Source: a bacterium (GTDB lineage Bacteria; Bacillota_I; Bacilli_A; RFN20; CAG-288). From it: 64,000 nt of DNA. Position numbers and translations under genes: made by a program. Numbering within the stretch: the first letter of the stretch is position 1; the number at the start of each line of letters is the position of its first letter. This document shows, in pieces, positions 3,506-24,954 of this stretch. The notes beneath the pieces are model-generated. The model saw only the letters and a list, made by a program, of their open reading frames with translations, was not told where the DNA came from and did not search any database. The stretch spans positions 6,518 to 70,517 of the forward strand of contig CAVILQ010000005.1 in the NCBI GenBank assembly GCA_963643715.1. Direction: 5' to 3'.

Positions 3506-4408
3506 ATGGTATTAGTTATCGGTGAAATATTGATGGATATGATTGGGAATGAGAATATTGATTCTCTTCAGGTTCAAGGCAAATTAGGTGGAGCACCGCT
3601 AAATGTGGCTAGCGACTTAGCTGACTTAGATGTCGACACTATGTTCTATGGTGTTATCGGAAAAGACATTATCGGTCAGTTTCTGAAAGGACAGTTAAGA
3701 GATAGAAAAGCGAACTTTTCGATTCTTTTGAATGAAAGAGAGGATAGAGAAACAACCATCGCATTCTTCTTGAAGGATAAAGGTGAATTTCAGTTCTTGA
3801 GGAAGAATGGTGCAGATTATGATTTTGATAAAGAAACTCTGCTATCTCTTCCATATCAAAATGCAAAGATCATTCATTTTGGTTCTCTTTTCCTTTCCGA
3901 TAGGAAAGCAAGAGAAACTGTCTTTGAATGTATCAAAGAATATAAGAAAGAAGACAAACTGATATCCTTTGATGTTAATTATCGGTCTGATATCTTTAAA
4001 GACACAGATGATATCGTCTCTTACTATAAGGAGATGATTTCCTGTTCCGATATTGTGAAACTGACTAAGGATGAACTGACATTATTGACCGGAATAGATG
4101 ATATGAATAATGCTTTGAAAACATTTGATGATAGAAAAGTCATCCTGATAACAGATGGCGAAAATGGTTCATACTGCTATCTAAACGGAAAACTGTATCA
4201 TAAAGCGAGTGAGAAAGTGAATCCAATCGACACAATCGGATGTGGTGATTCCTTTATGGCTGGATGCTTGTCCTATATTCATAATCATTCACTTTCTACA
4301 AAAGAGAATATTTTAGACATGCTCTCACGTGGAAATGAGTGCGGGAAAAGAACCTGTCTTGTCAGTGGTGCGCTACACGGATATCACAGTTTAGAAGATG
4401 TGAAATAA
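3506..4408 (+). CDS. scrK: fructokinase (PfkB-family carbohydrate kinase)
   Basis: It carries the PfkB N-terminal GG motif (LGGAPLNVA) and the C-terminal DTIGCGDSFMAG signature. It is translationally coupled to the GH32 gene, starting 2 nt after its stop. Confidence 0.8.
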   Translation: MVLVIGEILMDMIGNENIDSLQVQGKLGGAPLNVASDLADLDVDTMFYGVIGKDIIGQFLKGQLRDRKANFSILLNEREDRETTIAFFLKDKGEFQFLRKNGADYDFDKETLLSLPYQNAKIIHFGSLFLSDRKARETVFECIKEYKKEDKLISFDVNYRSDIFKDTDDIVSYYKEMISCSDIVKLTKDELTLLTGIDDMNNALKTFDDRKVILITDGENGSYCYLNGKLYHKASEKVNPIDTIGCGDSFMAGCLSYIHNHSLSTKENILDMLSRGNECGKRTCLVSGALHGYHSLEDVK

Positions 4409-4411
4409 AGG

Positions 4412-5272
4412 ATGTGTGTATTAGGAGTGGAGTGTTTTTATATGAATTATATATCGCTGTTCGTTAGTCTAGCCATCGTGATTATTGGCGTTTCCGTATT
4501 TGTCTTTTTTCTATTGCGAAATAAAAAGTATAAAAGATTTATCCTAGAGAAAAGTGAAGCTTTAAAGATACAATCGAATATTAATGCTGCATTTTGCTTT
4601 TATGATGTGGAGCAGATCAATCTTTCACATAATTATGATAATGAGAATTTCTATAATGACATAAGCTGTTTAGACTTTCTCATCTACTTTTTGAGAGATT
4701 ATGAGAAGTTTACAAAAAAACAAATCGAGACCGCTCACCAAAACGCAAGATTATACACTCAGTATATGGAAAGAATGAAAAGGGAAGCATATCCTAGTTT
4801 ATCTAGCTTTCATCTTGATGGTGAGAGACTGAGTGTAAAGAAACTGAATAAAGTCGAAAAGAAAGAATTCGAATCCAGAATGAAGAATCCGATTACAAGT
4901 ACCTCTGCAACAGTTTTATTACGAAGAGTCGATCTCCATGAGAAGAGAACCTATGAAACGAAGAAAGCAGTCTTCAATCAAGGAACAATCATTTCTTGTT
5001 TAGAGAAACTCGATAACAAGAAAAAAGGTTTCTATCAGGATAGTGAAATCTGGGATGCTCTTTGTAGAGTGGAAAGAGGAAAGGTGACGAATAAGCTTCG
5101 TTTCTACATATACCATCGAGATGGAAACCGATGCGTACGATGTGGATGCAGAAAAAACCTAGAAGTCGATCACATTTATCCAATCAGTAAAGGCGGGAAG
5201 ACTACACCAAACAATCTTCAGACATTGTGTCATCGATGCAATGTTGAAAAAGGAGCAAGGACGGACTATTAA
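4412..5272 (+). CDS. membrane-anchored HNH endonuclease-domain protein. The true start may be the ATG at 4442.
   Basis: An N-terminal TM helix (YISLFVSLAIVIIGVSVFVFFLL) is followed by a C-terminal HNH motif (CVRCGCRKNLEVDHIYPISKGGKTTPNNLQTLCHRCNVEKG). Confidence 0.7.
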   Translation: MCVLGVECFYMNYISLFVSLAIVIIGVSVFVFFLLRNKKYKRFILEKSEALKIQSNINAAFCFYDVEQINLSHNYDNENFYNDISCLDFLIYFLRDYEKFTKKQIETAHQNARLYTQYMERMKREAYPSLSSFHLDGERLSVKKLNKVEKKEFESRMKNPITSTSATVLLRRVDLHEKRTYETKKAVFNQGTIISCLEKLDNKKKGFYQDSEIWDALCRVERGKVTNKLRFYIYHRDGNRCVRCGCRKNLEVDHIYPISKGGKTTPNNLQTLCHRCNVEKGARTDY

Positions 5273-5327
5273 GCTGAACTTTTATATTCGTAGCAAAACG
5301 GGTGTACTTTCGCTTTGTCTTTGTTGT

Positions 5328-5341
5328 TGATGAATCTTATC
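5328..5341 (+). repeat. Inverted-orientation copy (TGATGAATCTTATC) of the island 3'-end motif.
   Basis: It is a 14/14 match to the reverse complement of the motif at 8797-8819. It lies in the intergenic region between the HNH gene and the FtsH-like gene. Confidence 0.4.
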
Positions 5342-5544
5342 GCTCTTTGCTATAAATCCGTACTGTTGAACTAAGATAGTGATGGTACAGCATTATGGTT
5401 TTAGAGTGCGCCTTTGGCGGAAAAAAATATATATAAAAAGGTGATTGTGTGAAACTTCTGATCAATCCTATAAGTTTTCATCTATAAGATGATCAGAAGC
5501 TTCACTATCATACATTCACTTCGTTATAACATTAAATCTGCAAC

Positions 5545-6912
5545 TTATTCTTTTGTCTTCTCAATTATCTGCTTGATTTCACTTCCGGAGAGAACAGTGT
5601 TTTCCATGAGTGCGGTAGCAAGAGCTTCAATCTGCTTTTTACCATTTGAGATCAGGTTAAGAGTCTTCTCTTCATACTCTTGAAGCAACTGTGCTGTTTT
5701 TTCAATACGCTTATCGTTTTGTTTTCCGCGAGGAGTGCTAAAAATCCTAGAGTCTACATTCATACGGATGTCACAGAACTCTAATCCATACAATCCGTTG
5801 TCCATTAATGTGGCGATAAGCGCTATTGCTTTTTCGATATCCCCATTGGCTCCGGTTGTCTGTGTTCCAGTCATAAGCGGGACTGCCACATATCCACCTA
5901 AAGCGATGCAAATCAGGTTGATGACTCTTTCCATAGTGAGAACCTTCTCTTTCATATCGAAGGCGCATTCGAAATGTCCAAGGGATTTGCCGCGTTTGAT
6001 AATCGTGGCTCCGTTAACATTATCTGGATCGAGCAAGTAGTTCACATAAGCGTGTCCTGCTTCGTGGTAGGCGATATATTTCAACTCACTGTCATCAAAG
6101 CTGTTATCATGAGCGACATCCTCGAATCGAATCTTGTCGATGGCTTCACGGAAATCAGAGAAACATACATTATCTCTACGTTCTGATACGGATTTCAGGA
6201 TGACTTCATTGACGACCGTTTCAATGTCAGCACCAGTCATAGAGATTGTGCTGCGAACAAGTTCATCCAATGTGAAATCATCTGCTACGTTTACCTTTTT
6301 CAAGAAGTGCTGGAATATAAGCTTTCTATCTTTTTCGCTTGGCGTAGGGAAACAGATCTGTCGATCGAATCTTCCGCTTCGTGTCAGTGCATCTCCGAGA
6401 TAGATCATCTCATTGCAGGTTCCAATTACCATTATATTCTTGTTGGCTTCATGAATCTTATCCAATTCATGAAGCAGAATCTTTTGAATCACAAGGTTCT
6501 CTTTAACATCATAGAGACGAGGATGATAGCCTGCTATCTTCTCAATTTCATCAATGAAGATAATACCAGTGTCAATCTCTTCGGTTTCCTTGAATCTTTC
6601 CTTTACCTCTTCCTCAATCGTTCTTTTATGCTCGATTGCGTCAGATTCACTGATTTCGATAAAAGGAACATTGAGGTATTCTTTCATGTCACGGACAATG
6701 CGGCTCTTACCGGTTCCGGGTTTTCCGTATAAAAGCCAACCACGAGGGAAATGACCGCCCTTTGTAGAATACAGTTCTGGATTTTTAAAGATGTCGATGA
6801 TCTGATAGGCTTCTTTTCTGATATCGTTGTAACCAGCGATATGAGGGAAGACTTTATCTAAGACTTCGGTTGAAACTGCTTTGCTCTTTGTGTTTTTCTT
6901 TAAATTGTTCAT
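5545..6912 (-). CDS. cytosolic FtsH-like AAA+ ATPase fused to an M41 zinc-peptidase domain, with no transmembrane or periplasmic region
   Basis: It has the FtsH-type AAA module (LLYGKPGTGKS; Walker B IIFIDEIEKI; SRH ...TRSGRFDRQICFP). An M41 HEXXH follows in IAYHEAGHAYVNYLLDPDNVNGATIIKRGKSLGH, matching FtsH TAYHEAGHA...IIPRGRALG. The protein is 455 aa and starts directly with the AAA N-terminal region. Confidence 0.75.
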   Translation of the reverse strand: MNNLKKNTKSKAVSTEVLDKVFPHIAGYNDIRKEAYQIIDIFKNPELYSTKGGHFPRGWLLYGKPGTGKSRIVRDMKEYLNVPFIEISESDAIEHKRTIEEEVKERFKETEEIDTGIIFIDEIEKIAGYHPRLYDVKENLVIQKILLHELDKIHEANKNIMVIGTCNEMIYLGDALTRSGRFDRQICFPTPSEKDRKLIFQHFLKKVNVADDFTLDELVRSTISMTGADIETVVNEVILKSVSERRDNVCFSDFREAIDKIRFEDVAHDNSFDDSELKYIAYHEAGHAYVNYLLDPDNVNGATIIKRGKSLGHFECAFDMKEKVLTMERVINLICIALGGYVAVPLMTGTQTTGANGDIEKAIALIATLMDNGLYGLEFCDIRMNVDSRIFSTPRGKQNDKRIEKTAQLLQEYEEKTLNLISNGKKQIEALATALMENTVLSGSEIKQIIEKTKE

Positions 6913-7009
6913 TAATTATTTTTCCTTTTTGTTTTCATACCTTCTCGACAAGATTTATGTTTACATTTTAAGTTCCTCTATATGAGTTTCCTTTTGCTCT
7001 TCAACGCAT

Positions 7010-7029
7010 GATTAAATGATTAGCCTCAT
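7010..7029 (-). repeat. Degenerate copy of the 3'-end motif (minus strand: ATGAGGCTAATCATTTAATC), downstream of the 130-aa gene.
   Basis: It fits the pattern ATGA..CT.ATCA.TTAAATC that is shared with the copies at 7568-7590 and 8797-8819. Confidence 0.3.
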
Positions 7030-7046
7030 TGGATAGAAGACTATCG

Positions 7047-7439
7047 TCAATATGCTAGTTCTTCCTCTTCTTCCTTTAGAAGCATATCCTCATAGTACCA
7101 ATCAAGATAGTCATCAGATATGATATCTTTTCTTTTATCGCGCTCTTTTCTTTCTAAAATTCGAATTCCATTCTCTTCTTCGATATACTTGATGTAGGAA
7201 GTTAGTTTTTCAATCGTATGACGGATGCAATGGTCTTTTGCTGCTCTCACATTCAATGCTTTTCTGAGTGATACACCGCTAGAGAAGTAGATATTGACGC
7301 CTCTATGATAGTCCTGGGTGAAGAGATAGTACTGCTTTCCGTTATGTTCGACATAGAAGTTATGATTGCCAAGTCTATTGATTCTGCAACTGATGATTGA
7401 ATCCATGGTTAATTCCTCCTTTTTGGATTGCATCTTCAT
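7047..7439 (-). CDS. hypothetical 130-aa protein with an acidic C-terminus
   Basis: It is a clean ORF with a strong RBS (AAAGGAGGAATTAACC before the ATG). I recognise no domain. It has a poly-E tail. Confidence 0.5.
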   Translation of the reverse strand: MKMQSKKEELTMDSIISCRINRLGNHNFYVEHNGKQYYLFTQDYHRGVNIYFSSGVSLRKALNVRAAKDHCIRHTIEKLTSYIKYIEEENGIRILERKERDKRKDIISDDYLDWYYEDMLLKEEEEELAY

Positions 7440-7513
7440 TTTTCTGCTTCCTGATAAGGGTTTGATTACATGGTCAACTCTCTATCAGGTTTCCATTCTT
7501 GATGGATACATCT

Positions 7514-7546
7514 TAAAAATCAGTTTCTGTTTGATGAACAGAAACC
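7514..7546 (-). terminator. Rho-independent terminator downstream of the Vps4-like AAA gene
   Basis: A perfect 9-bp stem GTTTCTGTT-loop-AACAGAAAC is followed by a T-run on the minus strand. Confidence 0.6.
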
Positions 7547-7567
7547 GATTTATGGCGAGTGAAAAGA

Positions 7568-7590
7568 TGATTTAACTGATACGATTCATC
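7568..7590 (-). repeat. 3'-end motif copy (minus strand: GATGAATCGTATCAGTTAAATC) overlapping the AAA gene stop
   Basis: It matches about 20/22 positions of the copy at 8797-8819. It encodes the C-terminal ...EMNRIS*. Confidence 0.45.
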
Positions 7591-8696
7591 TCAAATTCTT
7601 TGATTTTGTCTACGTCAGCAGAGAATACGCTGCTGTAAACGGAATTTCTGATTGTGTGTAAATCTGAATTGCTGATTTTAGAATCAAGGCCAGATTCAAT
7701 TTCTCGGTTGATGGATAACATTTTCAATTGCTCACAGAATTCACTCACATCAGCCCCGTTGAACCCTGAGGTAAGATTCACGGCTTCTTCGTAATCGAAG
7801 TCATCATCAATGGGTAGTCCGTTGAAGGCATGTTGAATCATCTGTAATCTTGCTTCTTCATCGGGGAGCCCGATTTTCACCATCACATCAATCCTGCCGG
7901 GTCTTATGAATGCCGAGTCGATATCCCAAGGACGATTGGTGGCTGCGATGATAATTGGCTTATTCTTGCTTCGATTGATACCATCCATCTGAGCAAGTAG
8001 CTCAGGGACAATACGGTTCATCGGTTGAGAATATCCTCCTCTTTTGCATCCTATTGCTTCGAATTCATCGAAGAAGATGATAGACCTAGAAAACTTTCTC
8101 GCCTCTTCAAATAGGGCTGCTATATTCTTCTCTGTCTTTCCGAACAATTCAGAGACAAGATCAGAACAGCGTATTGGATAGAAGCATGCATTGGTTTCCT
8201 GAGCGATTGCTTTTGCTAATAATGTCTTTCCGGTTCCTGGAACACCATAGAACAGAATGCCACCGCTGTTTGCTTTATGATATTTGCTATAGATAGCGGA
8301 ATAGTTGATTGGATTGATGATGCGAGACTCGATTTGCTTCTTAGCTTCATTCAATCCTGCTACATCGGAGAACTTAACACCTGTGTTGTGAATCGGTTTG
8401 AATAACGCGTTTTTGGTGCTGAGTTCCTCTTGTGCCACCTTCTTATCAAGGCTTAATTTTAGTTTTTGTTCGGACTTTTCTGGCTTGATTTCTTCAGACC
8501 ATTCCTTAAGTTCTTTCGAACGTTCAAGTCTTTCCTTCTTTAAATCGCCTTCACTGTAATCGGCAATCTTTTTCATTATCATACTTGCTTCAGCAAGGTA
8601 TAAATATGCAGTATCAGCCGAATTCTCTCGTAAGGCTTTAAAACCCTTATCGTATAACTTATTGTACTCTTCAAAAAGTTTTGAGATTATGTCCAT
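7572..8696 (-). CDS. Vps4/katanin-like AAA ATPase with an N-terminal MIT-like helical domain
   Basis: The classic-clade AAA module (ILFYGVPGTGKTLLAKAIAQE; IIFFDEFEAIG; second region of homology ATNRPWDIDSAFIRPGRID) is preceded by about 60 aa of helical, MIT-like sequence. It has no protease domain and no TM helix. Confidence 0.7.
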   Translation of the reverse strand: MDIISKLFEEYNKLYDKGFKALRENSADTAYLYLAEASMIMKKIADYSEGDLKKERLERSKELKEWSEEIKPEKSEQKLKLSLDKKVAQEELSTKNALFKPIHNTGVKFSDVAGLNEAKKQIESRIINPINYSAIYSKYHKANSGGILFYGVPGTGKTLLAKAIAQETNACFYPIRCSDLVSELFGKTEKNIAALFEEARKFSRSIIFFDEFEAIGCKRGGYSQPMNRIVPELLAQMDGINRSKNKPIIIAATNRPWDIDSAFIRPGRIDVMVKIGLPDEEARLQMIQHAFNGLPIDDDFDYEEAVNLTSGFNGADVSEFCEQLKMLSINREIESGLDSKISNSDLHTIRNSVYSSVFSADVDKIKEFEMNRIS

Positions 8697-8704
8697 ATAT
8701 GTTT

Positions 8705-8722
8705 CCTTTTAATAACTCGAAA
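8705..8722 (-). promoter_or_regulatory. Conserved leader motif (minus strand: TTTCGAGTTATTAAAAGG) 10-30 nt upstream of the AAA gene start
   Basis: A 16-nt block identical to the one at 9731-9746 sits ahead of the next gene. It is a candidate promoter or leader element. Confidence 0.4.
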
Positions 8723-8796
8723 TCAGCACTTCCATGAGTCTAGTTAAACCCATGAAAGTGCAAGAAGTCAGATCAAACATTAAGAGGCGAATAGAA

Positions 8797-8819
8797 GATT
8801 TAACTGATAAGATTCATCA
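8797..8819 (-). repeat. 3'-end motif copy (minus strand: TGATGAATCTTATCAGTTAAATC), just downstream of the SprT-like gene stop
   Basis: I compared the sequence with 7568-7590, 7010-7029 and 5328-5341. Confidence 0.45.
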
Positions 8820-8849
8820 TAGATTCTGTCGCTTCTCGAACACAAGAGA

Positions 8850-9716
8850 CTAAGCATACATAAATCTCTGCTCATTGTGACTATTGACAATTCTGATGAG
8901 ATTGCTGAGCTCTTTTGTGTCATCATAGGAATTTGGAAGTTCGAGGATAGACACGAATCTAGAAGATTTTGTTGGCGTGTCAAGTGTAGAGTCATAATTT
9001 CCGATAAGATAACGATTGACTAATTTACATATGATGCGATCGTTAAGCATCACATAAGGAAGGAGTTCCTTTAGTGGAAGCAAAGTAAAGTCCTTATCCT
9101 TGATGACTCTATTCTCGATATAGTAGAAGGTGAAGTCATTCTTAAGACTCGTATCTAATAAAGAGAAGTAGATGGAAACAGATTTGTCAAAGAGTTCCGG
9201 ATTGTTTTCAGTTTCCATCTTCGCAAGCAGAATTTTCTGTTCTTCCCTTGTCAGAGAAAAGAAAGAATTCATTTCTTTAACAGGAGGAACTGTGTTAAAT
9301 CGACAAATGTTATACTTTGTGTTTTGACTCACAAAGTCTGCGAGTTTGTTCCACTGAATTCCGTGACCCTCATTCTCACCATTCAGTCTTGACTTGACAT
9401 GAAGGAGTTCATGAATGATGACATTGATGCACAGATCCTTGTCTTCGATAATCTTATTCTTGATAGTGATATAGTATACGTTCTTCGAAAGAGTGATATT
9501 AGGATAGTCATTAGTTGTCCAATCGGACGCTTCCGAAACGAGAACGCTACTGGTTGAACCATATAATTTGATTTTGTGGTTCACGTTCCTTTCCGTATAA
9601 AAAGTAATATCTTCTGTGACAGGAATATTGATGGATTCCAAAACAGAGACAGCTTCTTCGATATACGGAAGGATCTTACTCGAAATCGTCTTTGAATAAT
9701 GAATGTTTTCTCTCAT
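8850..9716 (-). CDS. SprT-like / DUF45-like HExxH zinc metallopeptidase domain protein
   Basis: The block IIHELLHVKSRLNGENEGHGIQWNKLADF fits the HExxH-(x)n-HGxxW pattern of the SprT family. RBS AAGGGG lies upstream. Confidence 0.5.
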   Translation of the reverse strand: MRENIHYSKTISSKILPYIEEAVSVLESINIPVTEDITFYTERNVNHKIKLYGSTSSVLVSEASDWTTNDYPNITLSKNVYYITIKNKIIEDKDLCINVIIHELLHVKSRLNGENEGHGIQWNKLADFVSQNTKYNICRFNTVPPVKEMNSFFSLTREEQKILLAKMETENNPELFDKSVSIYFSLLDTSLKNDFTFYYIENRVIKDKDFTLLPLKELLPYVMLNDRIICKLVNRYLIGNYDSTLDTPTKSSRFVSILELPNSYDDTKELSNLIRIVNSHNEQRFMYA

Positions 9717-9727
9717 TTGTTTTTACC

Positions 9728-9746
9728 CCTTTTTAATAACTCGAAA
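9728..9746 (-). promoter_or_regulatory. Second copy of the conserved leader motif (TTTCGAGTTATTAAAAAGG), upstream of the SprT-like gene
   Basis: It is a 16/16 match to 8707-8722. Confidence 0.4.
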
Positions 9747-10041
9747 ACTTGTAGTTTTACGAGCTTGAAACGAAACGGATTGAAGTGTAGAAGAGCACAT
9801 CAAACGTAGGTGAATCAAGGATAATGACTTAATAGATGACGACTTGAGAATTGAACTGGAAACTTTTTTCATTCCTCCTTTATGATTTCGGATTCGTAGA
9901 TCTGATGACATACCAAACAAAACAAAGTAATAAGAATCAAGCGATACCTCCTTTTGCTCTTTCTTAAACGGAAACCAATAACCATTGGTTTTCACTACGA
10001 TTAAACGACACCACTCTTTTAATAGGGAAAAATTAGTAAAA

Positions 10042-10099
10042 GTCGATGAATCACACCTACAAGTTGATTTTTATAAAGTGAGGTGCTGATTCATCGAAC
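10042..10099. promoter_or_regulatory. Long imperfect hairpin (about 17-bp arms, 22-nt loop) with GATGAATC in both arms, in the intergenic or promoter region
   Basis: The arms GTCGATGAATCACACCT ... AGGTGCTGATTCATCGAAC are near-complementary. Confidence 0.35.
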
Positions 10100-10185
10100 G
10101 CGGCGAATAGAAGCTAAGCATGTTGTATACTTATCGACATATTTGAATCATATAGGAAAGCATTAGTTCCGATTTTGTGAATTTA

Positions 10186-10212
10186 GAAAAAGCCCACGTT
10201 TATGGGCTTTTT
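10186..10212. terminator. Bidirectional Rho-independent terminator (AAAAAGCCCAC-GTTTA-TGGGCTTTTT)
   Basis: An 8-bp GC-rich stem is flanked by an A-run and a T-run. It lies immediately 3' of the 904-aa gene on the minus strand. Confidence 0.7.
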
Positions 10213-10239
10213 CAAGAATTAGTAATTTCAAAAACATCT

Positions 10240-12954
10240 CTATTTTGTCAATTTTAGGTAGAAATCGAAATATTTTAATCCCTGTTCATCATTGGATAAT
10301 TCGTAGTGCAGATGTGGGTTCTTTTCCGTTATGAATATTTCTTTGAGAATTTCTTTTGATTTGCTATCTTCAATCAGTTCCTTCAATAACGGATAATAAA
10401 GGTTCCAGTAGAAACTCTTTTTGGATTTTTTATCACCCTTCTCAGATAAGACGAATACAGCTTTGATTCTTCCTGGCTTTAGGATATCGTATTTAGCCAT
10501 GCAATCTCTTATGGCATCTTTTTCATCAATCTTATTCTTTCGTAGTAGTTCTTCGAAAGTGTATACGGATTCATCTTTGCCTTCATCTGATTTAGAACGT
10601 AGCATCTTCTCTTTCTTCCTGAATTCAGCTGAGAGTTGTTTGTATTCGCTTAAAAAGTCTTTTGCTTTCTTTTTATCGGTTTCCGTAGAGCCTAAATCCT
10701 TGCGAAGGAAATCGACGATTTTCGATCTGCATCTTTCTACATTCTTCTCTCTTTTCAGTTCTACTTGTTTTACATATTCCATCGTTGTCTTATAGGGCAC
10801 TTTGACAAGTTTGTCTTTATGGAAACTATTCTGAATGATAGAGAAGAACTGCGGATATTTATATGTTTTGTATTTCTCTTTGATTTCCTTGATGACTGTT
10901 GCAGTATCGATACCATAATCTCTCTTTGCGCGGTCTATCTCAATACCGGATAGGACAGCAAGAATACAGATATCCCCATAGATATCCTTTTCTTCCTCTG
11001 TAAGAGCAAAGGTGGATATATGATTGTTTATCTTGTCCCAAAGGATGGAATTCAAGAACTGAGAAAGGTCGACAATTTTGCCGATATCTTTACCGGAATT
11101 CGCATTGATATCATCTAATTTTGCCGCTTCTGTGACGGAATTATTCGTTATAGGTAAATCGATATTGCTGACAGGGACTAAGAAAAGACCATCCTGTTTT
11201 TCAGCATGTGAGACTAGAATAGGATTGTTGATGATGAACATGGTATCGGAATCATAATCACATCCGTTGAGTCTTTGCTGGATGTTTTCATTGACTGCAT
11301 TGACATGAACGATATGTTTTCCGATATCAAAATAATCCCAAATCGGATCATTACACAAATCATTCCTCACGAGATATACGTTTCCCATTGTAATATGAGG
11401 GTAACGGACACAAAGAAGTTTCTGATCATCTTCATCAAAACGATTTGTTCTGATATATCCTGGCTTTAAGATAGATGATTTTCCATCCCATTTTCCGATG
11501 ATGTATTCTAAGTATTCAGGTCCGTTACCGAATAAGGTAGCATTTGTACCTGTCAGGTAACATTTTCCACATCTAGCCCTATCCTTTAGAACTCTTAGTG
11601 CACTATCCTGAAAATCATAGTAAAAGTCTACGTTTGAAAATCCGGGATTGATTTTCAACAGTTCCATGATGAGGTTTCCTTTTACCTGGTATTCGTTTTC
11701 TGTTTCATCGGAAATAGAAGATTCATCTATCTTTTTGCCTCTTCTTAGATTGATGAATCCAGAGATAAACTGTGCAAAGAAAGTAGGATCATTTCTTGCG
11801 TTGTATATAGCATCAATGTAAGGATGGAACAGTTGATCGACATCCTCTTTCTGAAGATTGACTGTGTTCAGCAATTGATAGGAACTTGATACCTGTTTAC
11901 CAAAACAGAACTTTGGTGCTTTATCTGTCTTAACGACACCGAAACTGTCATCGACAATATTGGTCCACCCTCTTATGTTCTTCTCAGAGAAACCATCATA
12001 GAACTTTAAAAACTTAAGGCAGCTTTCTGATACGACCATTTCGATGTCCTCGATGCTTTTAGCAAATGTCACTATGCCTGTTTTCTTTTTATGCTTCTTA
12101 TCTACATCATTTCCTTGTGAGAATGAATCTTTCAATTGCTCGATAGTTGTGATGTTGTTATCGAGAAACCATTTTTGTAGTTTAGTTCTGAAACAGCACG
12201 CCTTGAAGAAACGGTTTCTAAGTAAAAGCATATGACTTTTTTCATATCCGTTTTTTATAAAGACCTGATCATCAATAAGGCCTTCCCCATCGAATATATT
12301 GTTTTCGATCTCACAATCGTGAATTGTAGACTTTAAGGAACATTCCTTTTTTCTTGTCACTTCTACTACGGAATCAGTAAAGGTGACTTTCTTGTCTTTT
12401 ACAAAAAGAATATGATCAAGTGGAATGGAGATGCATTTCTCAATGCTACTCATCGTCAATGATTTATACGCTTCAAAGGAAGATAGATTGTGTATAGTAG
12501 GATCGAATTCGATTCCACATTGAGTCCAATGATTCATCTCATCATATAGTTGTTCGATTATGAAAAGGCATCTTCCATCACGACTGCTTCCGCTTGTTCT
12601 TTTATATCGTACATAGTGTTGTCCATTTAAATAGAAGCCCTTTTCATATAGATATTCCCTAGCGTGAAAAACTTCCTCTTTGTCTTTCTTGCTTTTTGCC
12701 ACATCGAATAGAAGGTTGACAAGAAGATAATCAGAGTATTTTATAGTTGGCTTTTTCTTGTTTCTTCTATATTTATCTAGACACTTGAAAAGTTCGATAT
12801 GATCCAACGAATTTGAGTTTTTGAATGAGATAAGACTTTTTAATTTCTTGTCATCAAATAGGGCACCGTTATCGATTCCGTTTGGGGTGCCATGATAGAC
12901 CTCATAATAAGGTAGATATAAGGTATCATCATTCTGTTTCTTTGTGTCTGTCAT
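10240..12954 (-). CDS. single-chain two-barrel (double-psi beta-barrel) RNA polymerase-like protein of the YonO / QDE-1 / multisubunit-RNAP catalytic superfamily
   Basis: One segment, LKDRARCGKCYLTGT, matches the beta-subunit DPBB block (E. coli AGDKMAGRHGNKGVIS). The downstream segment RYPHITMGNVYLV...GKHIVHVNAVNENIQQRLNGCDYDSDTMFII matches the beta' NRAPTLHRLGIQAF...[26 protein letters not shown] block. The catalytic loop here reads DYDSD. The order of the barrels (beta-like, then beta'-like) is conserved. Confidence 0.6.
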   Translation of the reverse strand: MTDTKKQNDDTLYLPYYEVYHGTPNGIDNGALFDDKKLKSLISFKNSNSLDHIELFKCLDKYRRNKKKPTIKYSDYLLVNLLFDVAKSKKDKEEVFHAREYLYEKGFYLNGQHYVRYKRTSGSSRDGRCLFIIEQLYDEMNHWTQCGIEFDPTIHNLSSFEAYKSLTMSSIEKCISIPLDHILFVKDKKVTFTDSVVEVTRKKECSLKSTIHDCEIENNIFDGEGLIDDQVFIKNGYEKSHMLLLRNRFFKACCFRTKLQKWFLDNNITTIEQLKDSFSQGNDVDKKHKKKTGIVTFAKSIEDIEMVVSESCLKFLKFYDGFSEKNIRGWTNIVDDSFGVVKTDKAPKFCFGKQVSSSYQLLNTVNLQKEDVDQLFHPYIDAIYNARNDPTFFAQFISGFINLRRGKKIDESSISDETENEYQVKGNLIMELLKINPGFSNVDFYYDFQDSALRVLKDRARCGKCYLTGTNATLFGNGPEYLEYIIGKWDGKSSILKPGYIRTNRFDEDDQKLLCVRYPHITMGNVYLVRNDLCNDPIWDYFDIGKHIVHVNAVNENIQQRLNGCDYDSDTMFIINNPILVSHAEKQDGLFLVPVSNIDLPITNNSVTEAAKLDDINANSGKDIGKIVDLSQFLNSILWDKINNHISTFALTEEEKDIYGDICILAVLSGIEIDRAKRDYGIDTATVIKEIKEKYKTYKYPQFFSIIQNSFHKDKLVKVPYKTTMEYVKQVELKREKNVERCRSKIVDFLRKDLGSTETDKKKAKDFLSEYKQLSAEFRKKEKMLRSKSDEGKDESVYTFEELLRKNKIDEKDAIRDCMAKYDILKPGRIKAVFVLSEKGDKKSKKSFYWNLYYPLLKELIEDSKSKEILKEIFITEKNPHLHYELSNDEQGLKYFDFYLKLTK

Positions 12955-13122
12955 AAAAAAGAGTCCTTTCTATGCGTATTTCAATCATATCATTTACCGA
13001 TAGGAAAATGGTAAGCATTCTCATTTTTTCTCAAATCTCATTATAGAAAAAGGCTATCAAGCATTCTTCATAGAGTATATGTTAGATGCTTTATAGCCAT
13101 GTATTCTTGGATGGATTATCAA

Positions 13123-15768
13123 CTATTCAGGGAGAACAGCTTTGTTCTTCTTCTTGAATGTTGATTTTCGGATGAATATATCAGCCAAATAGATGATGAC
13201 AGAGACAAGGAAGAAGATCATCATCGTTGAATAATAGCTGTATTGATTCAACTCAGAGTCACTTACCTTGTATTCGTATTCATCTCCGTTAGCGTAAAGA
13301 GTGCCAGAAGAAGCTTTAGTCATCTCACTTAATAGGACATTGTCACCTGTGTTTGGAAGCAAGTCATATTCTTTCGAATAATCGTAGTAGAAAGAGAAAT
13401 CATCTTTCTCAACGACTTGATATACGCCATTAGCATCCTTTTCAGAGTAGGTTGCTTCAACCTTGTACTTACCTTTCTCATTGACAGGAATGTTGATGTT
13501 GTATGTCTTGTTCTTAGAGTCATAGATAAGATCAGCTTCTGATTCTTTTCCGCTAGGATCAGTTGCCTTGATGTGAATGCTTCCTTCAGCATCCTGTTCA
13601 TTGACAAGAACAGAGACACCCATTGAAGTACCATTGGCGTTAAAACTCATATCCATCACAGTTGTAATGCTTCTTTCTGGTAGTGTCTGATAGATGGAAT
13701 TCTGTAAGAAGGTTTTACCAGCTGAGGAGGAACGGAAGTCTTTTGTCCAATCATTGGTGATATTGCTTGTGAAGGAGGCGACTTTTCCTTTTCCGAAGGA
13801 CCAGTATGCGTATAACGGAATTGTAGCGACACCGGTTGTATTGTTGTTCTCATCCTTCTTGATGTACTGAAGAGTGAGGACAGTGGTAGAGCCACCTTTG
13901 ACACGACAGTAGTTATACCCTTGTAAATCCGGCAATGTCTTGACGTTGTTCAGAACAGGATCATCCGAGATGCGATACTGAATCTGAGCCTCTTCTACAA
14001 TCTCCGTGTTGCCGATCTCGCCGGAAACGGAGGAAAGCATAACGTCGATAAGTCCCGAAGCAGTGCGGCAGAAATAGTAGTTTCCATTACCGATTTCACT
14101 CAGTGTTGTTAGTATGCTTTTACCAGCATCGCTAGAAATGTTGATGAAAGAACAGATTATGTTGTCGTTTGCCATGTTGCGAACAATTCTCTTCAGTTCA
14201 TCATCGGATTCGCTAGGAAGACCATCGGTCAGCGTGATGACATTCTTATATTCGCAGCTGGAATTATAGACCTGTTCCTGAGCCTGTCTAAGTCCTGATC
14301 CTAACTTTGTTCCACCGCCAAGAGCGATACTGTTGATTGCCTTGATGATTGTTGTCTTGTTCTTGATGGAAGTCATAGGCTGGTGAATGGTGACGCTGTC
14401 AGAGAAGGAGATGATAGAAACGAAGTCTTTGTCAGAAAGGACATCAAGACACTTGATGGCACCCTTCTTTGCAATTTCAAGTCTATCATCCGACTGCATG
14501 GAACCAGAGCAGTCAATCAATAGGACAAGTGCTTTGGCATCCTCGGATTCATATTGAACAGGAAGCATATCATTGTAGTCGTTGATACCTTCTGCAGTTC
14601 CGCTTGTATAGGTTGCACCATAGGTCAAAAGGCTTTTTCCGTATGTGGATACGGCAGTGTTGAGGTTGACGGAGAAATCTTTGTAATGATTCAAGGAGAG
14701 AATGTTGATGTTATCTAGTACGATTTCATCATACTTAAGCAAATCAGCTAGTTTGTACGGAACATTGGCGGTCTCGACATAAGAGGTGATTTTGGTGTTT
14801 TCATCATAACCGCTGACTTCTTTGAAGGCAGTCAAGTCATCAGAAGTGTTTCCGATAAAGAGGACTTTGAAGTCATCCGTGTAATCCTGAGTGAAGTGGA
14901 CTGTGTTGTTCTCTTCAAACGTATCGCTTTCCGGTTTGACTTCAATCGTATAGTCGATTGATCCTGCTTTCTCACTTGTGACATAGAAGGTGACGATGTT
15001 AAGGCCGGTAGCCAAAGTGGTTTCTTTCTCTTCTTTGACTTCTCCACCACTCATCAAATCTACTTTGGCGTTCTTTTCACCAGTGGATTGAATCATGACT
15101 TTGACGGTCTGCTCCCGATTGGTGAAGCAATGGTCGACATAATCGATGCTTTTGATGCTGACTTCATCCGTAAGAGTATCTTCAAGATAGACAGCATCGA
15201 GCGAGATGTTATCGTTGAGGATAGTGGATATTGTATCCATAGCGGAGTTATCCGTTTCAACACCATCGCTGACTAACACCATTTTCTTGATACTATCAGC
15301 TGAATAGAGATCTTTTGTGTAATTCAGCGCAGAAGAGATATCGCTAGCGCTTCGGATAAAGTCTGGATGCTTCTTCTCATCATATGCTTCTGAGACACTC
15401 TTCGGACTCTGTCCTGGCTTAGTAAGAACAAAACTGTTCTCACCGAAGCAGACGACACCGGTAGAAGCGGATGACTTTTCATAGATGCTTTTTACGGTGG
15501 CATCAATCTTCTCGATGTTCCCTTTTTCTGAATCAGAACAATCCACTAGGATATACATTTCTGTCTTGTGGTTGTTCTGGACGACTTGAATGTCACTGAA
15601 GGCAAGAGAAAGAGTGAATGAGAGGACAACATGAAGACATAAGGAGATGATGTTGTTGGTTCTTTTTCTTTTTTGCTTTGGAATGAGGAAGAAGATGACA
15701 AGGGAAAGCACGACTAATGGGATAGAGATATAGAGGAGATATGGATAGGAGATTTTAATATTGTTCAT
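13123..15768 (-). CDS. membrane protein with two von Willebrand factor A (vWA) domains (BatB-like)
   Basis: It has an N-terminal TM pair and vWA MIDAS motifs (ILVDCSDSE, LLIDCSGSMQSDDRLE). A C-terminal TM anchor is present. It is the last gene of the MoxR operon. Confidence 0.65.
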   Translation of the reverse strand: MNNIKISYPYLLYISIPLVVLSLVIFFLIPKQKRKRTNNIISLCLHVVLSFTLSLAFSDIQVVQNNHKTEMYILVDCSDSEKGNIEKIDATVKSIYEKSSASTGVVCFGENSFVLTKPGQSPKSVSEAYDEKKHPDFIRSASDISSALNYTKDLYSADSIKKMVLVSDGVETDNSAMDTISTILNDNISLDAVYLEDTLTDEVSIKSIDYVDHCFTNREQTVKVMIQSTGEKNAKVDLMSGGEVKEEKETTLATGLNIVTFYVTSEKAGSIDYTIEVKPESDTFEENNTVHFTQDYTDDFKVLFIGNTSDDLTAFKEVSGYDENTKITSYVETANVPYKLADLLKYDEIVLDNINILSLNHYKDFSVNLNTAVSTYGKSLLTYGATYTSGTAEGINDYNDMLPVQYESEDAKALVLLIDCSGSMQSDDRLEIAKKGAIKCLDVLSDKDFVSIISFSDSVTIHQPMTSIKNKTTIIKAINSIALGGGTKLGSGLRQAQEQVYNSSCEYKNVITLTDGLPSESDDELKRIVRNMANDNIICSFINISSDAGKSILTTLSEIGNGNYYFCRTASGLIDVMLSSVSGEIGNTEIVEEAQIQYRISDDPVLNNVKTLPDLQGYNYCRVKGGSTTVLTLQYIKKDENNNTTGVATIPLYAYWSFGKGKVASFTSNITNDWTKDFRSSSAGKTFLQNSIYQTLPERSITTVMDMSFNANGTSMGVSVLVNEQDAEGSIHIKATDPSGKESEADLIYDSKNKTYNINIPVNEKGKYKVEATYSEKDANGVYQVVEKDDFSFYYDYSKEYDLLPNTGDNVLLSEMTKASSGTLYANGDEYEYKVSDSELNQYSYYSTMMIFFLVSVIIYLADIFIRKSTFKKKNKAVLPE

Positions 15769-21811: not shown

Positions 21812-24800
21812 ATGAAAAATGTAAAGAAATCAGTCTTGCTTTCTCTCATTTCCTTGGCGTTGATCTCCTGTGGTGGTACAGAATCTTCAACTGTTGCCCC
21901 AAGTTCAGGAACATCAGCCACGTCAGAGAAAATTCCGGCTTCAGATACGGGAAGACCTTCAGAATCTTCTTCACCTGTTTCAGATGGCGATGTCTCTTCG
22001 GATTCTTCTGCTAAACCGAGTCCTGATAGCGACACTGGAACAGATGATGTTGATGAGGATGCCTGGGGTGAAGACATCAGTGCCTTGATGATCAAACATC
22101 TTGGTGGAAATGTTCTCCCTTATGTTTCCTTAGGCAGAACTGTTGATGGCACATGGAAGAGAAGCATCGGTGACTATGGTATTCTTACCATTGTCGGCGG
22201 TAAATTCGATAAGAAATATCTTGATGATGCTGAAGCTGCCTTTAAGGCAAAAGATTGGACAACCGATAAGACAGCAACAACTTTCACCGGTACATCTAGC
22301 GAGAAACACATCAAGGTAGAGCTTACCAGTGATGAGTATGGCTATAGCAAAATGACAGCGGTTTATGATGAACCATTTGATGCTACAAGTGTGGATAGCT
22401 GGGACAGTGACACTGTTGCTGCCATGCAGACAAACTTAGGAGGTCACGTACTTCCATTCGTATATTTAGGAATGGCTGCACCTGCTACAGAATGGACCAA
22501 TTCGACAAAGACATTCTCTATCGATGGCGGAAAATGGGATGACAGTGTTCTTGATCTTGCTTATGCTTCTTTGACTGCTGGCAACTTTGTCAATGTCAAG
22601 AAGTCATCGGAAGTCTATGGCACGGTTGTCAGTGGTGAACTCACCTTTGACGATGGCTGCAAAGTATCCGTTTCACTTTATAAATCTGGTTCTGATACTG
22701 CTCCTTTCCCACATCTTTCTGTCTTCTATAAGGAAGCCTACAATCCTGTTGATGGAGCAACATGGCCTTCTTCTATTTCCTCTCGTTTCCAGACTAGCTT
22801 CGATAATCATGAACTTCCTTATGTCTATCTAGGAAGTAATACTCTTTCCTCTGATTGGAACCCGACAGTCAATAAGCTCACTATCACTGGCGGGGCCTTT
22901 GATTCCCGTATTTTTGAAGCGGCTAAGACAACTCTTTCTGCTCAGGGATATGCTTGCATCGAGGAAAAGGATTCCAGTGGAAACCAGAAGTCATTGATTG
23001 CCTCACAGACTCTATCTGATGGTTGCACCATGGTCGCTGTCTTGTTCGGCAATTCCACTTTGGCAAGACTCGATGTCTACTATTACACTCCTCTCAATGT
23101 TCCTGCCGATTGCACCTCTTTCAGTGACGATGATGCTGTCAAAGCAAAGATGGATAAATACTTGGATGGACATAGCGGAGATGTTCCGTTTGTCTATTTA
23201 GGAACAGATACCCTGGATGTCTCCTATGATACCTATTCTGAATCTCTCCAGATTGTTGGCGACAAGTTCAATGGCATCATGATCGATCGAGCCAAGAAAG
23301 CATTCGAAGATGCTGGATATGGCATTGCTATCGGTAGTGAAGACTCTTATGGAAGAACTTTCTATGCCAGCAAGAAGTTATCCGACGGCTGTGTCATCAC
23401 AGCTAGAATGGATTCTAGCTATGGAAGCAAGTCCGCTATCCTTACACTCTCCTGTGTCGAAGGATTCAATCCTCCGGAAGAAGGCAGTGCAGAAGCAGAA
23501 TGGAGTGCAACGATTCAGGAAGCGATGGAAGTCGAACTTGGCGGAAATGTCATTCCTTATATCTATCTTGGCACAAAGTCTGTCACGCTGAAGCAGGGCT
23601 CTAGCAGTGTTGAACTCACTGGCGGTTCTTGGGATGATAGTATTCTCACTTCCGCAAAGACTGCTTTAGAGACGATGGAAGACTTCACTTGGACATTCAA
23701 AGATGGTATTAGCCGAATCGATGGGGAAGCATCGGATGAAGATGGAAACAAACTCACTGTTGCTCTCTATAAGAATTCTAAGAATAAGCCGGTTCTCAAG
23801 ATCACTTATCTCAAGGCCTTCGTTGTTCCGGAAGATGGAGCATGGACAGATGAAATCAAAGAGACAATGACGACGAACTTCGGTGAAGTCTTGCCTTACG
23901 TTTATCTTGCCGCTTCTGATGATGAACTCTCCGCAGGTGACTTCTATTCTGGTGAATTGGAAATCTCTGGTGGAACCTGGGATGACCAGATTTACGATTT
24001 GGCAGAGACTGCTTTGACAGAAGCCGGATACACAATCAGCAATGGCATCAGTCAGAACGATGGCATCGATATGGTTACCGCCTATAAGTCTGTTGACGGA
24101 AAACTGATTCGTATTGCAGTCTATAACTACGATGATGTCGCAACCTATAAAGCATGCTTTACCGATGCTGCTACGTATCCTAGTGATGCAACAGCCTGGA
24201 GTAGTGCGATTCAGGACCAGATGACTAGCTATATGGGTGCTGATCACACCATTCCTTACTTCTATACAGGTGATAATACCCCTTCTGTTTCTTTGAAAAA
24301 TTATTCTGCTATCGGTAAAAAGTATTTACAGGTCTCTTCTCTTAGAAACTGGAATGAAAACTATACGCTTAACGCTAATAATGTTCTGAAAGCGGCTGGA
24401 TGGACTACGACATACTATGCAATCACTGATGCAAACTACGCTGGCGGAAAACTCGTTGCCAAATATACCTATTCCGATGGTGCTAGTGTCATATTGACAA
24501 TCAAGTATGGATATTCCTATGACACGATGTATATCGCCTATCAGGATCCATTCACACCGAGCGATGAAACGACTTGGTCTCCAACTGCCACGAACATCAT
24601 GGAAACGAACTTCAACGGACATATGCTTCCTTACTTCTATATGGGTACGGATTCTCCGGATGTTTCATTTGACAGATCCTATCATTGCATGACTATGGTC
24701 GGCGGTGTCTGGGACGAAGACATCTACACTCTTGCCGAGACGGCATTGAAGGCAGATACTGACCTGAAGTGGACGGTTGTCTATGATTATTCCTATAATG

Positions 24801-24946
24801 ATTCCACGGAAGGAAAGACATTGGTTGCAGTTGCTGATGAAAAGGATACAGGTAAGCACTTCACTTTGAAACTATACTGCCAAACTTCTGGTACGAGAAA
24901 CGGATATGGTGTTCAGGCACCTGTCATGGAAGTCTACTACAACTAA
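21812..24946 (+). CDS. large repeat-containing lipoprotein (paralog A). It has eight tandem modules of about 125 aa. Start refined to 21812.
   Basis: RBS GGAGGA plus an ATG at 21812. A lipoprotein signal with lipobox LISCGG is present, followed by an S/T/D-rich linker. Each module carries W-x10-LGGxVLPYVYLG ... ITGGxWDD ... DG. Confidence 0.7.
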   Translation: MKNVKKSVLLSLISLALISCGGTESSTVAPSSGTSATSEKIPASDTGRPSESSSPVSDGDVSSDSSAKPSPDSDTGTDDVDEDAWGEDISALMIKHLGGNVLPYVSLGRTVDGTWKRSIGDYGILTIVGGKFDKKYLDDAEAAFKAKDWTTDKTATTFTGTSSEKHIKVELTSDEYGYSKMTAVYDEPFDATSVDSWDSDTVAAMQTNLGGHVLPFVYLGMAAPATEWTNSTKTFSIDGGKWDDSVLDLAYASLTAGNFVNVKKSSEVYGTVVSGELTFDDGCKVSVSLYKSGSDTAPFPHLSVFYKEAYNPVDGATWPSSISSRFQTSFDNHELPYVYLGSNTLSSDWNPTVNKLTITGGAFDSRIFEAAKTTLSAQGYACIEEKDSSGNQKSLIASQTLSDGCTMVAVLFGNSTLARLDVYYYTPLNVPADCTSFSDDDAVKAKMDKYLDGHSGDVPFVYLGTDTLDVSYDTYSESLQIVGDKFNGIMIDRAKKAFEDAGYGIAIGSEDSYGRTFYASKKLSDGCVITARMDSSYGSKSAILTLSCVEGFNPPEEGSAEAEWSATIQEAMEVELGGNVIPYIYLGTKSVTLKQGSSSVELTGGSWDDSILTSAKTALETMEDFTWTFKDGISRIDGEASDEDGNKLTVALYKNSKNKPVLKITYLKAFVVPEDGAWTDEIKETMTTNFGEVLPYVYLAASDDELSAGDFYSGELEISGGTWDDQIYDLAETALTEAGYTISNGISQNDGIDMVTAYKSVDGKLIRIAVYNYDDVATYKACFTDAATYPSDATAWSSAIQDQMTSYMGADHTIPYFYTGDNTPSVSLKNYSAIGKKYLQVSSLRNWNENYTLNANNVLKAAGWTTTYYAITDANYAGGKLVAKYTYSDGASVILTIKYGYSYDTMYIAYQDPFTPSDETTWSPTATNIMETNFNGHMLPYFYMGTDSPDVSFDRSYHCMTMVGGVWDEDIYTLAETALKADTDLKWTVVYDYSYNDSTEGKTLVAVADEKDTGKHFTLKLYCQTSGTRNGYGVQAPVMEVYYN

Positions 24947-24954
24947 TCTTATAT

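Follow-up and report, generated by a model that had tools for sequence, protein, structure and literature searches.

Indel polymorphisms flanked by short direct repeats, whether from recombination or slippage between the repeats or from Campbell-type integration and excision, are characterized by same-orientation repeats that lie one module apart, and by relatives that lack the module and keep one copy of the repeat, with the left flank of the upstream copy and the right flank of the downstream copy. In integron cassettes, one-gene modules carry a recombination-associated 3′-end sequence over the stop codon, and a GTTRRRY-like heptamer accompanies a variable array of accessory genes; cassettes of this kind also have an inverse core, an imperfect palindrome (57-141 bp in attC), an IntI integrase and an attI site. 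T7-type phage polymerases use 23-bp promoters that recur between genes, and the genes downstream of the polymerase gene all lie on its strand. The locus described here resembles each of these systems in part. It lies in a 64,000-nt stretch of a bacterial contig (CAVILQ010000005.1, positions 6,518 to 70,517), which we refer to as the window. We found that two direct repeats of ~39 nt, in the same orientation and 1228 bp apart, are probably the ordinary scar of the gain or loss of an AAA ATPase gene module, provided by passive homology and not by a dedicated signal.

Organization of the island

The genes of the island that adjoin the repeats, together with the polymerase gene that comes first, are:

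10240..12954, minus strand: gene for a YonO-like single-chain two-barrel RNA polymerase, 904 aa; first gene of the island
8850..9716, minus strand: gene for a SprT-like metalloprotease, 288 aa (Pfam SprT-like, 5.7e-6); upstream neighbour of repeat copy 2
7572..8696, minus strand: gene for an AAA ATPase, 374 aa, with a classical AAA fold, IetA/IteA-like; cargo between the two repeats

The YonO-like gene matches phrog_8308 at 5e-75 and contains the motif NGCDYDSD; by tblastn it matched an SPbeta-like Bacillus phage and genes annotated as 'RNA-dependent RNA polymerase' in Enterocloster and Thomasclavelia phages. The AAA gene matches Pfam AAA (2e-37) and PADLOC IetA (3e-38), and its match to NCBIfam IteA_antiphage (6.9e-33) is under the family cut-off. 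Phage and plasmid collections held no DNA match to 5273-9000, viral contigs scanned with the FtsH-like and AAA proteins yielded no close relatives, and a literature search for YonO-linked AAA/SprT systems returned nothing specific. Distant AAA homologues (~45-48% identical) are found in a different conserved operon, which is uninformative on the motif.

Two copies of a direct repeat

The original prediction described a family of four motif copies at gene 3′ ends. The copies at the AAA stop codon and after the SprT-like gene are confirmed, and they belong to a longer repeat:

8789..8827, minus strand: repeat copy 2, non-coding; begins 22 nt after the SprT-like stop codon
7561..7599, minus strand: repeat copy 1; the last 9 AAA codons and the stop (…KEFEMNRIS*) plus 11 nt downstream

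The core of copy 1 is the 22-mer GATGAATCGTATCAGTTAAATC at 7569-7590(-), which spans the AAA stop codon (TAA = 7574..7572), and the core of copy 2 is GATGAATCTTATCAGTTAAATC at 8797-8818(-), 31 nt past the SprT-like stop; 21 of the 22 bases are identical. When the 64 kb were scanned with the 22-mer at ≤3 mismatches, these were the sole matches (shuffle expectation 0.01, with 2 matches in 0 of 100 shuffles), and allowing ≤6 mismatches yielded no further copies in the window. Similarity between the copies reaches 39 nt (33/39 = 85%), and the homology possibly covers ~60 nt. Their Smith-Waterman score of 48 was attained by none of 300 shuffles, which had a mean of 18, and blastn assigns the pair E = 3e-6 in a self-comparison of the island.

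The two remaining members of the predicted family are not upheld. A degenerate third copy had been placed after the 130-aa gene at 7010-7029(-). Aligned locally to copy 1, it scores 16 at best, whereas shuffles average 18.3 and 272 of 300 attain 16; the stretch is not conserved among four related loci. The fourth member is a shorter match:

5328..5341, plus strand: inverted 14-mer TGATGAATCTTATC, exact match to part of copy 2; within the HNH module (4413-5386), absent from L027

This 14-mer is present as described, but the significance attached to it does not hold: its E-value is 0.87 in the 9.2-kb island self-comparison, which also turned up a further two exact repeats that are no shorter (14-15 nt) within unrelated coding DNA. 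Its match score was attained by 1 of 300 shuffles and by 1-2 of 220 real segments, and a one-mismatch version lies inside the FtsH-like gene at 6449-6462. Recurrence of a 14-mer in 64 kb had been considered very unlikely; for an unspecified pair this is wrong, as by our own arithmetic ~15 recurring pairs are expected. We also considered the 14-mer as part of a longer member of the family, by aligning the HNH 3′ flank, with gaps, to copy 1 and its downstream flank. The score was 24.5, a value attained by 13 of 429 real segments and 4 of 500 shuffles. As judged from these comparisons, the 14-mer looks like a chance-level match and is not convincing.

Searching more widely for the motif gave chance matches only. 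With two copies in 64 kb, it does not behave as a dispersed repeat family (REP, MITE or regulon motif). Exact matches in genome and metagenome collections were three in coding sequence for ADESYQLN, presumably pyruvate carboxylase, and one in an unrelated AT-rich contig, all of them chance matches; 596 Gb of genomes contain the motif nowhere other than in chance coding matches.

Origin of the two copies

At copy 1 the AAA ATPase ends in …KIKEFEMNRIS*, and copy 2 translated in the same register gives ESMMNLIS*. The C-terminal coding sequence is homologous in two AAA homologues that have no repeat (…KIKDFEMSREC* in P0002 and …KIKEFEDKMKEKLF* in P0003), and copy 1 is therefore native gene sequence. 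The 3′ end of a 69%-identical AAA homologue in L002, TTTGAAATGAGTAGAGAATGTTAG, is also recognisably homologous, with 16 of 24 bases matching. On these alignments, copy 1 is the AAA gene's own coding 3′ end and copy 2 is, to all appearances, a non-coding duplicate of such an end. Homology that extends across the flanks of the motif is what the original prediction had named as favouring a duplication remnant. A longer pseudogene behind copy 2 was considered and rejected, as a tblastn search of the window with the AAA protein found nothing near 8800-9000 beyond the short repeat.

The copy 2 core is 86% identical in L014, a locus that is 94% identical overall, compared with 81-82% for the neighbouring spacer, 94% for the leader hairpin and 97% for the box before the ATG; we found no extra conservation of copy 2 in L014 over the neighbouring spacer. 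The two cores within the window are more alike than would be expected had the copy diverged neutrally since the lineage split, and this leaves room for selection or gene conversion.

Relatives without the AAA module

Comparison of strains, which had been proposed as a check for rearrangement at these sites, places the joint of an AAA-module indel at the repeat. Two related loci, L013 and L027, are ~81-82% identical to the window and collinear with it on both sides, and both are without the whole AAA module. Because they are 95.5% identical to each other, we count them as one independent AAA-less lineage among the close relatives. The net length difference is 1229-1230 bp, vs a repeat period of 1228 bp, and the sequence jumps from the SprT 3′ flank (window ~8845-8852) directly to window 7587-7592. 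Each locus has a single diverged copy of the repeat, with 15/21 and 17/22 matches, i.e. 5-6 changes. The left flank of this single copy is the left flank of copy 2, and its right flank is that of copy 1, including the terminator-like element that follows it:

7517..7551, minus strand: intrinsic-terminator-like hairpin and T-run; begins 17 nt after copy 1

This hairpin is retained after the single copy in L013 and L027, and in L004 the stem is kept via G-U pairs. The locus thus has the marks of a direct-repeat-flanked indel: similar copies in the same orientation, one-copy relatives that are about one period shorter and flanked as the model predicts, and a copy 1 that is traced to a gene 3′ end. 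Unlike the typical case, the repeat here is just ~22-39 nt long and the L027 joint is 12 nt out of register. RecA-dependent exchange has its lower length limit near this size. In L027 the remaining copy is without ~12 nt that are found in both window copies and, as aligned, is not a clean product of the two window copies recombining in register; to account for it, one must assume either a crossover that was out of register, at the internal GAATC repeat, or a small indel that arose later.

In the proposed mechanism, the repeats bracket one module, made up of the AAA ATPase gene with the hairpin of its leader and its 3′ end, and copy 2 would be the leftover stub of an AAA-type 3′ end just after the SprT-like gene. 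The L013/L027 lineage may have lost the module by deletion between the repeats, or, in the reverse direction, a single crossover may have integrated it into a pre-existing stub. The origin of copy 2 itself would require an earlier tandem duplication or a circular intermediate. For either direction of the event, we infer homologous or slipped recombination as the mechanism. As a routine footprint of gene gain and loss, the motif itself matters little; the pair marks the AAA ATPase gene as a discrete strain-variable module in a small island of the chromosome whose first gene encodes a YonO-like single-chain RNA polymerase.

Other island genes, including those for the SprT-like protease and the HNH nuclease, likewise come and go between strains, and gene content and order vary among the related islands L002, L013, L027 and L028. 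In L027 the HNH module is gone, with ~20 nt of the HNH 5′ end retained, and the FtsH-like gene stands directly before PfkB. The inverted 14-mer had been viewed as a mark of the island edge; it lies inside this separate HNH insertion. A 464-bp deletion inside the SprT-like gene of L013 has 2-nt microhomology at its junction, and the AAA gene of L014 carries a 1-nt frameshift. The rearrangements other than the indel at the repeat (AAA in L002, loss of HNH, and the deletion inside SprT) use different junctions, without the motif.

Alternative explanations for the repeat

A role in transcription is the least improbable of the alternatives, and we consider it improbable. The motif would drive or control the gene that follows it (the 130-aa gene for copy 1, AAA for copy 2) as a YonO-like promoter, as a sigma-A promoter with operator, or as a regulator site. 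For YonO, the literature has yet to define a promoter (PMC5467207). Each copy lies ~100-165 nt upstream of the next start codon, and the 22-mer has weak dyad symmetry (7/11 pairs by our own count). Sigma-70-like elements can be read from the sequence at copy 2 (TTGTGT, an 18-nt spacer, and TATGAT ending at the 5′ edge of the motif), and a consensus scan gives TTGAGA, a 16-nt spacer and AATCAT over copy 1. However, these candidate promoters do not correspond in position within the repeat, and promoter-like sites in the scan are rarer than in shuffles (40 vs 47.6). As with T7-type promoters, a sequence of ~22 bp recurs intergenically and the genes downstream of the phage-type polymerase gene are all on its strand; unlike those promoters, the motif has two copies only, one of them coding, and it is absent before other island genes, with none upstream of the SprT-like or FtsH-like genes. 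Strong hairpins or terminators also stand between each copy and the next gene. Neither recurrence before transcribed genes nor conservation in relatives, as expected of a YonO-like promoter, was found: copy 2 in L014 is conserved less well than either the hairpin or the pre-ATG box, the one copy that L013 and L027 each retain is diverged, and the other YonO-like genes that we fetched (L015 and L016) have no comparable copy nearby.

Of the four functions that the original prediction had offered, the recombination or cassette reading alone gains support; for a terminator or processing signal for the island polymerase, a regulator binding site and a target of the HNH nuclease, we found nothing in support. 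An intrinsic terminator (G+C-rich hairpin and T-run) was not found within the motif, which is unstructured in folds, and no conserved RNA structure including the motif was detected. Rfam gave no family match over 4000-14000, where the sole listed entry is a sub-threshold snoRNA (E=0.54).

Site-specific recombination is less probable again, and we regard it as quite unlikely. In this reading the motif is a dedicated att- or attC-like core at which a recombinase inserts or excises cassettes (AAA, SprT, HNH) in the YonO-like island. Part of the cassette idea stands, as the repeats bracket exactly the one-gene AAA module, which is absent from L013 and L027 with a single copy at the joint. The downstream repeat spans the stop codon, as in integron cassettes; the motif core holds GTTAAAT, fitting the integron core pattern GTTRRRY; the related islands differ in gene content and order; and the SprT and AAA leaders share collinear blocks. 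However, GTTRRRY occurs by chance about once per 2 kb, there is no RYYYAAC inverse core within 180 nt upstream, and no imperfect palindrome or attC-like hairpin contains the motif. Unlike an attC site, the repeat here is simply the gene's own coding end, and only one module is bounded in this way. No adjacent IntI-type tyrosine recombinase or attI was found among the window ORFs scanned and the related island contigs: the larger window ORFs had no integrase or recombinase in the scan against Pfam, nor was one found in the NCBIfam scan, and no recombinase domain is recorded on the genes called in L001, L002, L013, L014, L027 and L028. The motif-free junctions of the other rearrangements and the absence of the motif from the genome collections also argue against a dedicated core.

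That the neighbouring HNH endonuclease cleaves the motif or homes to it, with the inverted 14-mer as the enzyme's own site, is highly improbable: the exact 14-mer does lie 56 nt downstream of the HNH stop codon, and the HNH gene is a strain-variable insertion, as is often the case for free-standing homing endonuclease genes, but the 14-mer match is at chance level with equally long repeats nearby, L027 has lost both the HNH gene and the AAA module with its motif copy still in place, and no nuclease is needed to explain the AAA indel fully.

Leader sequences shared within the island

Besides the repeats that we favour as the scar of module gain or loss, the AAA leader contains three further elements:

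8786..8797, minus strand: 12-mer CTTCTATTCGCC, directly 3′ of copy 2
8727..8762, minus strand: strong hairpin in the AAA leader, between copy 2 and the start codon (141-nt fold of -37.8 kcal/mol, z = -3.3)
8707..8722, minus strand: 16-mer TTTCGAGTTATTAAAA, just upstream of the AAA ribosome-binding site (E = 0.07 by itself)

A second, identical TTTCGAGTTATTAAAA stands shortly before the SprT-like start codon, at 9731-9746(-), and the SprT and AAA leaders have collinear blocks in common. CTTCTATTCGCC recurs unchanged at 10102-10113(-), within the leader that follows the YonO-like gene, where ATGCTTAG stands immediately before it. It is conceivable, though we give it little chance, that the stop-proximal repeat and the shared leader blocks (CTTCTATTCGCC … hairpin … TTTCGAGTTATTAAAA) would be junctions of a cassette-exchange system that swaps protease and ATPase modules into the YonO-headed island with no known integrase, or that the blocks would include the promoter or leader that YonO-type polymerases recognise. 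The island and its shared module leaders are a better target than the motif for asking what YonO-type polymerases transcribe outside prophages. The leader block with CTTCTATTCGCC is conserved in L002 and L027, and the stem of the AAA leader hairpin is kept in L004 and L014.

Direct repeats around the AAA ATPase gene

In this region the real feature is two direct repeats flanking an AAA ATPase gene that varies between strains; the first is the 3′ end of the gene itself, the second a non-coding stub. The pair is an ordinary kind of feature, and its best reading, which we consider likely, is a duplication or recombination scar. The 22-mer GATGAATC-N-TATCAGTTAAATC occurs twice on the minus strand, at 7569-7590 (copy 1) and 8797-8818 (copy 2), and the similarity spans 39 nt (7561-7599 vs 8789-8827, 85%). 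The two copies align with a Smith-Waterman score of 48, whereas shuffles average 18 and 0 of 300 got that high; a blastn self-comparison of the 9.2-kb island gave them an E-value of 3e-6. No further match exists in the window at ≤3 mismatches, where shuffles expect 0.01, or at 6 mismatches except for one unrelated site.

Genes of the island and its edge
10240-12954, minus strand, YonO-like 904-aa protein (phrog_8308 match)
8850-9716, minus strand, SprT-like metalloprotease
7572-8696, minus strand, classical AAA ATPase of 374 aa, IetA/IteA-like (below family cut-offs)
7047-7439, minus strand, 130-aa protein without a family match
5545-6912, minus strand, soluble FtsH-like protein with AAA and M41 protease domains
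4412-5272, plus strand, HNH protein, after the sucrose genes GH32 and PfkB

The original prediction was of a family of four motif copies at gene 3′ ends, one of them inverted. Two of the four stand, since the degenerate copy at 7010-7029 fails and the inverted one at 5328-5341 is unconvincing. The former aligns with a score of 16, under the shuffle mean, and is unconserved across four related loci, in which the conserved part of the same intergenic region is the one closer to the FtsH-like start codon. The inverted 14-mer is indeed an exact match, but its membership of the family is not borne out: its E-value is 0.87 in the island self-comparison, which also returns two other exact 14-15-nt repeats between unrelated coding regions, and 3% of real background segments score as high as a gapped alignment that includes the flank downstream of it.

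Copy 1 is coding. Its minus-strand reading, …AAA GAA TTT GAG ATG AAT CGT ATC AGT TAA, encodes KEFEMNRIS, the last residues of the AAA protein, and the stop codon. This C-terminus is a family trait, with homologues ending in …KIKDFEMSREC (69% identical), …KIKEFEDKMKEKLF (61%) and …KI.K[YF][EQ]… (~45%). In the 69%-identical homologue the DNA 3′ end is recognisably homologous to copy 1 and has no repeat partner. Copy 2, which begins 22 nt past the SprT-like stop codon, looks like a short duplicate of an AAA gene 3′ end, because it is non-coding, reads ESMMNLIS and then a stop in the copy 1 register, and has no longer AAA pseudogene behind it.

The AAA module in related islands

Related islands were recovered by exact and near-exact protein look-ups. 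The arrangement in one of them (L001) is identical to that of the window, and a second (L014, 94% nucleotide identity) is collinear with it, with three changes in the copy 2 core; in a third (L004, 92%), of which only the AAA gene is covered, copy 1 is intact. The AAA module, comprising a leader hairpin, the ATPase gene and its 3′ end, is absent from two loci, L013 and L027, which are ~81-82% identical to the window and count as one lineage because they are 95.5% identical to each other. Both follow the window from the polymerase gene as far as the SprT 3′ flank (about 8845-8852) and pick up again directly at 7587-7592, running on into the terminator (7517-7551), the 130-aa gene and the FtsH-like gene. 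They are shorter by a net 1229-1230 bp, for a repeat period of 1228 bp. The joint holds one diverged repeat copy, GCGAAACATGTCAGTCAAACC in L013 and GACGAAACGTGTCGGTTAAACC in L027, whose left flank aligns with that of copy 2 (…GT[GA]TTCGAGAAG…) and whose right flank aligns with that of copy 1 (…CATAAATCGG, then the hairpin). Repeats marking the two ends of an inserted or deleted AAA module would produce just this arrangement.

Sequence comparison leaves the direction of this event with points both ways, from a single AAA-less lineage. Three points favour a loss in that lineage: the HNH module (4413-5386) is missing from L027 as well, apart from a ~20-nt 5′ remnant; L013 additionally carries a 464-bp deletion within the SprT-like gene, with 2-nt microhomology; and in the single repeat copy a stop codon is still found in the register of the AAA gene. 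Two observations sit badly with a simple deletion. The single copy is ~12 nt short of what both window copies contain, which a plain exchange in register would not produce; one has to assume either a crossover out of register, at the internal GAATC repeat, or a small indel at a later time. At three positions copies 1 and 2 of the window share a base that differs from L013 and L027, for which a more recent duplication, gene conversion or substitutions specific to that lineage could each account.

Rearrangement in these islands extends beyond the repeats. Among the more distant islands, one locus (L002) has the order leader, 130-aa paralogue, AAA, degenerate 130-aa gene and FtsH-like gene, and another (L028) has a polymerase remnant, leader, 130-aa gene and FtsH-like gene; the motif is absent from the junctions of both, and the island is therefore modular, with rearrangement independent of the repeat sequence. 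The HNH module, made up of the HNH gene and 114 nt of its 3′ flank (plus strand), is likewise strain-variable, so that in L027 PfkB directly follows the FtsH-like gene. The relatives also carry apparent signs of island decay: a 1-nt frameshift interrupts the AAA gene of L014 (5521-6503) at nt 255, although this could equally be an assembly error, and the deletion in L013 (4859-5257) took out the metalloprotease core.

Functional readings of the motif

Were the motif a transcription signal, the promoter-like hexamers readable at both copies could be its basis; however, these do not correspond to each other, and a consensus scan found fewer promoter-like sites than in shuffles. The motif is missing before the SprT-like and FtsH-like genes, and strong hairpins stand between each copy and the following start codon. 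Identity to L014 is 86% in the copy 2 core and 81-82% in its flanks, compared with 94% in the hairpin and 97% in the pre-ATG box. The other YonO-like genes fetched have nothing comparable nearby. Because the YonO promoter itself is undefined in the literature (PMC5467207), this reading is unlikely rather than refuted. A structured RNA was considered and rejected, as Rfam returned no family match and one sub-threshold match (E=0.54); no conserved fold includes the motif.

An integron-like, site-specific recombination site would agree with the GTTAAAT in the motif core, which matches the integron pattern GTTRRRY, but about one match to GTTRRRY per 2 kb is found here in any case. The motif has neither an inverse core within 180 nt nor a palindrome, none of the larger ORFs put through a Pfam scan fits a recombinase family, and the called genes on related island contigs have no recombinase domain on record. 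A target of the HNH protein has a chance-level 14-mer as its sole basis.

A dispersed motif family was rejected. Exact scans covering 596 Gb of genomes, plus the metagenome collection, gave four matches to the 22-mer, three of them (L005-L007) coding for ADESYQLN in other Firmicute genomes, in genes that we take to encode pyruvate carboxylase, and one in an unrelated AT-rich contig. The Firmicute occurrences arose by chance; when 600 Gb are searched, agreement over 21 bases does not by itself speak for relatedness.

Leaders and hairpins

The SprT-like and AAA leaders have short collinear blocks in common. ATGCTTAG and CTTCTATTCGCC are contiguous at 10121-10102, and at 8857-8786 they are split by 52 nt that include copy 2.

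Shared blocks and hairpins of the leaders
8707-8722 and 9731-9746, minus strand, identical 16-mer TTTCGAGTTATTAAAA just before the AAA and SprT-like ribosome-binding sites
8786-8797 and 10102-10113, minus strand, identical 12-mer CTTCTATTCGCC at equivalent positions of the AAA and SprT-like leaders
10186-10213, minus strand, classical terminator in the polymerase/SprT-like leader
10043-10097, minus strand, long hairpin TCGATGAATCA…TGATTCATCGA (z = -5.3), conserved in L002 and L028

With the 16-mer and 12-mer at equivalent positions, the 5′ regions of the two modules appear related. The chained block alignment scores 44.6, reached by 0 of 300 shuffles and 0 of 268 real segments, evidence that is moderate because the real-sequence maximum is 42. 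The leader between the polymerase and SprT-like genes is a 520-nt non-coding stretch (9717-10239, minus strand), in which a 90-aa ORF (9723-9995), uncalled as a gene in L001, looks spurious. Upstream of the ribosome-binding site of the 130-aa gene, an inverted repeat CCTGATAGAG … CCTTATCAGG (7448-7489, minus strand) is kept in L013 and L027 with both arms changed in matching fashion, and may be a regulatory hairpin or operator.

The polymerase island and its neighbours

The part that deserves further work is the modular YonO-like polymerase island around the repeats. On its matches, the 904-aa protein belongs to the YonO-like RNA polymerases of the single-chain two-barrel kind: it contains the NGCDYDSD motif, matches phrog_8308 at 5e-75, and by tblastn matches an SPbeta-like Bacillus phage as well as genes that carry the annotation "RNA-dependent RNA polymerase" in gut-Firmicute phages (Enterocloster and Thomasclavelia). 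Here the gene shares a chromosomal island with genes for proteases and ATPases and has no phage structural genes near it; upstream of the island is an ordinary BatA/VWA/DUF58/MoxR operon. Homologues of 849 aa (~45% identical) are abundant; two of their loci (L015/L016), which resemble integrative mobilisable elements of gut bacteria, have NikA-like, relaxase and large serine recombinase genes next to the homologue.

AAA homologues ~45-48% identical to the window gene (L009-L012) lie in a different conserved operon, with a ~200-220-aa protein upstream and three proteins of 220-300 aa downstream, adjoined in one case by DarT/NADAR genes; this operon may be an uncharacterised defence-type system. 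Elsewhere in the window, at 22400-28200, two large plus-strand ORFs of 1052 aa (no Pfam match) and 1073 aa contain ~360-nt repeated coding blocks (families D1, D2 and D4) and probably encode repeat-domain surface proteins.
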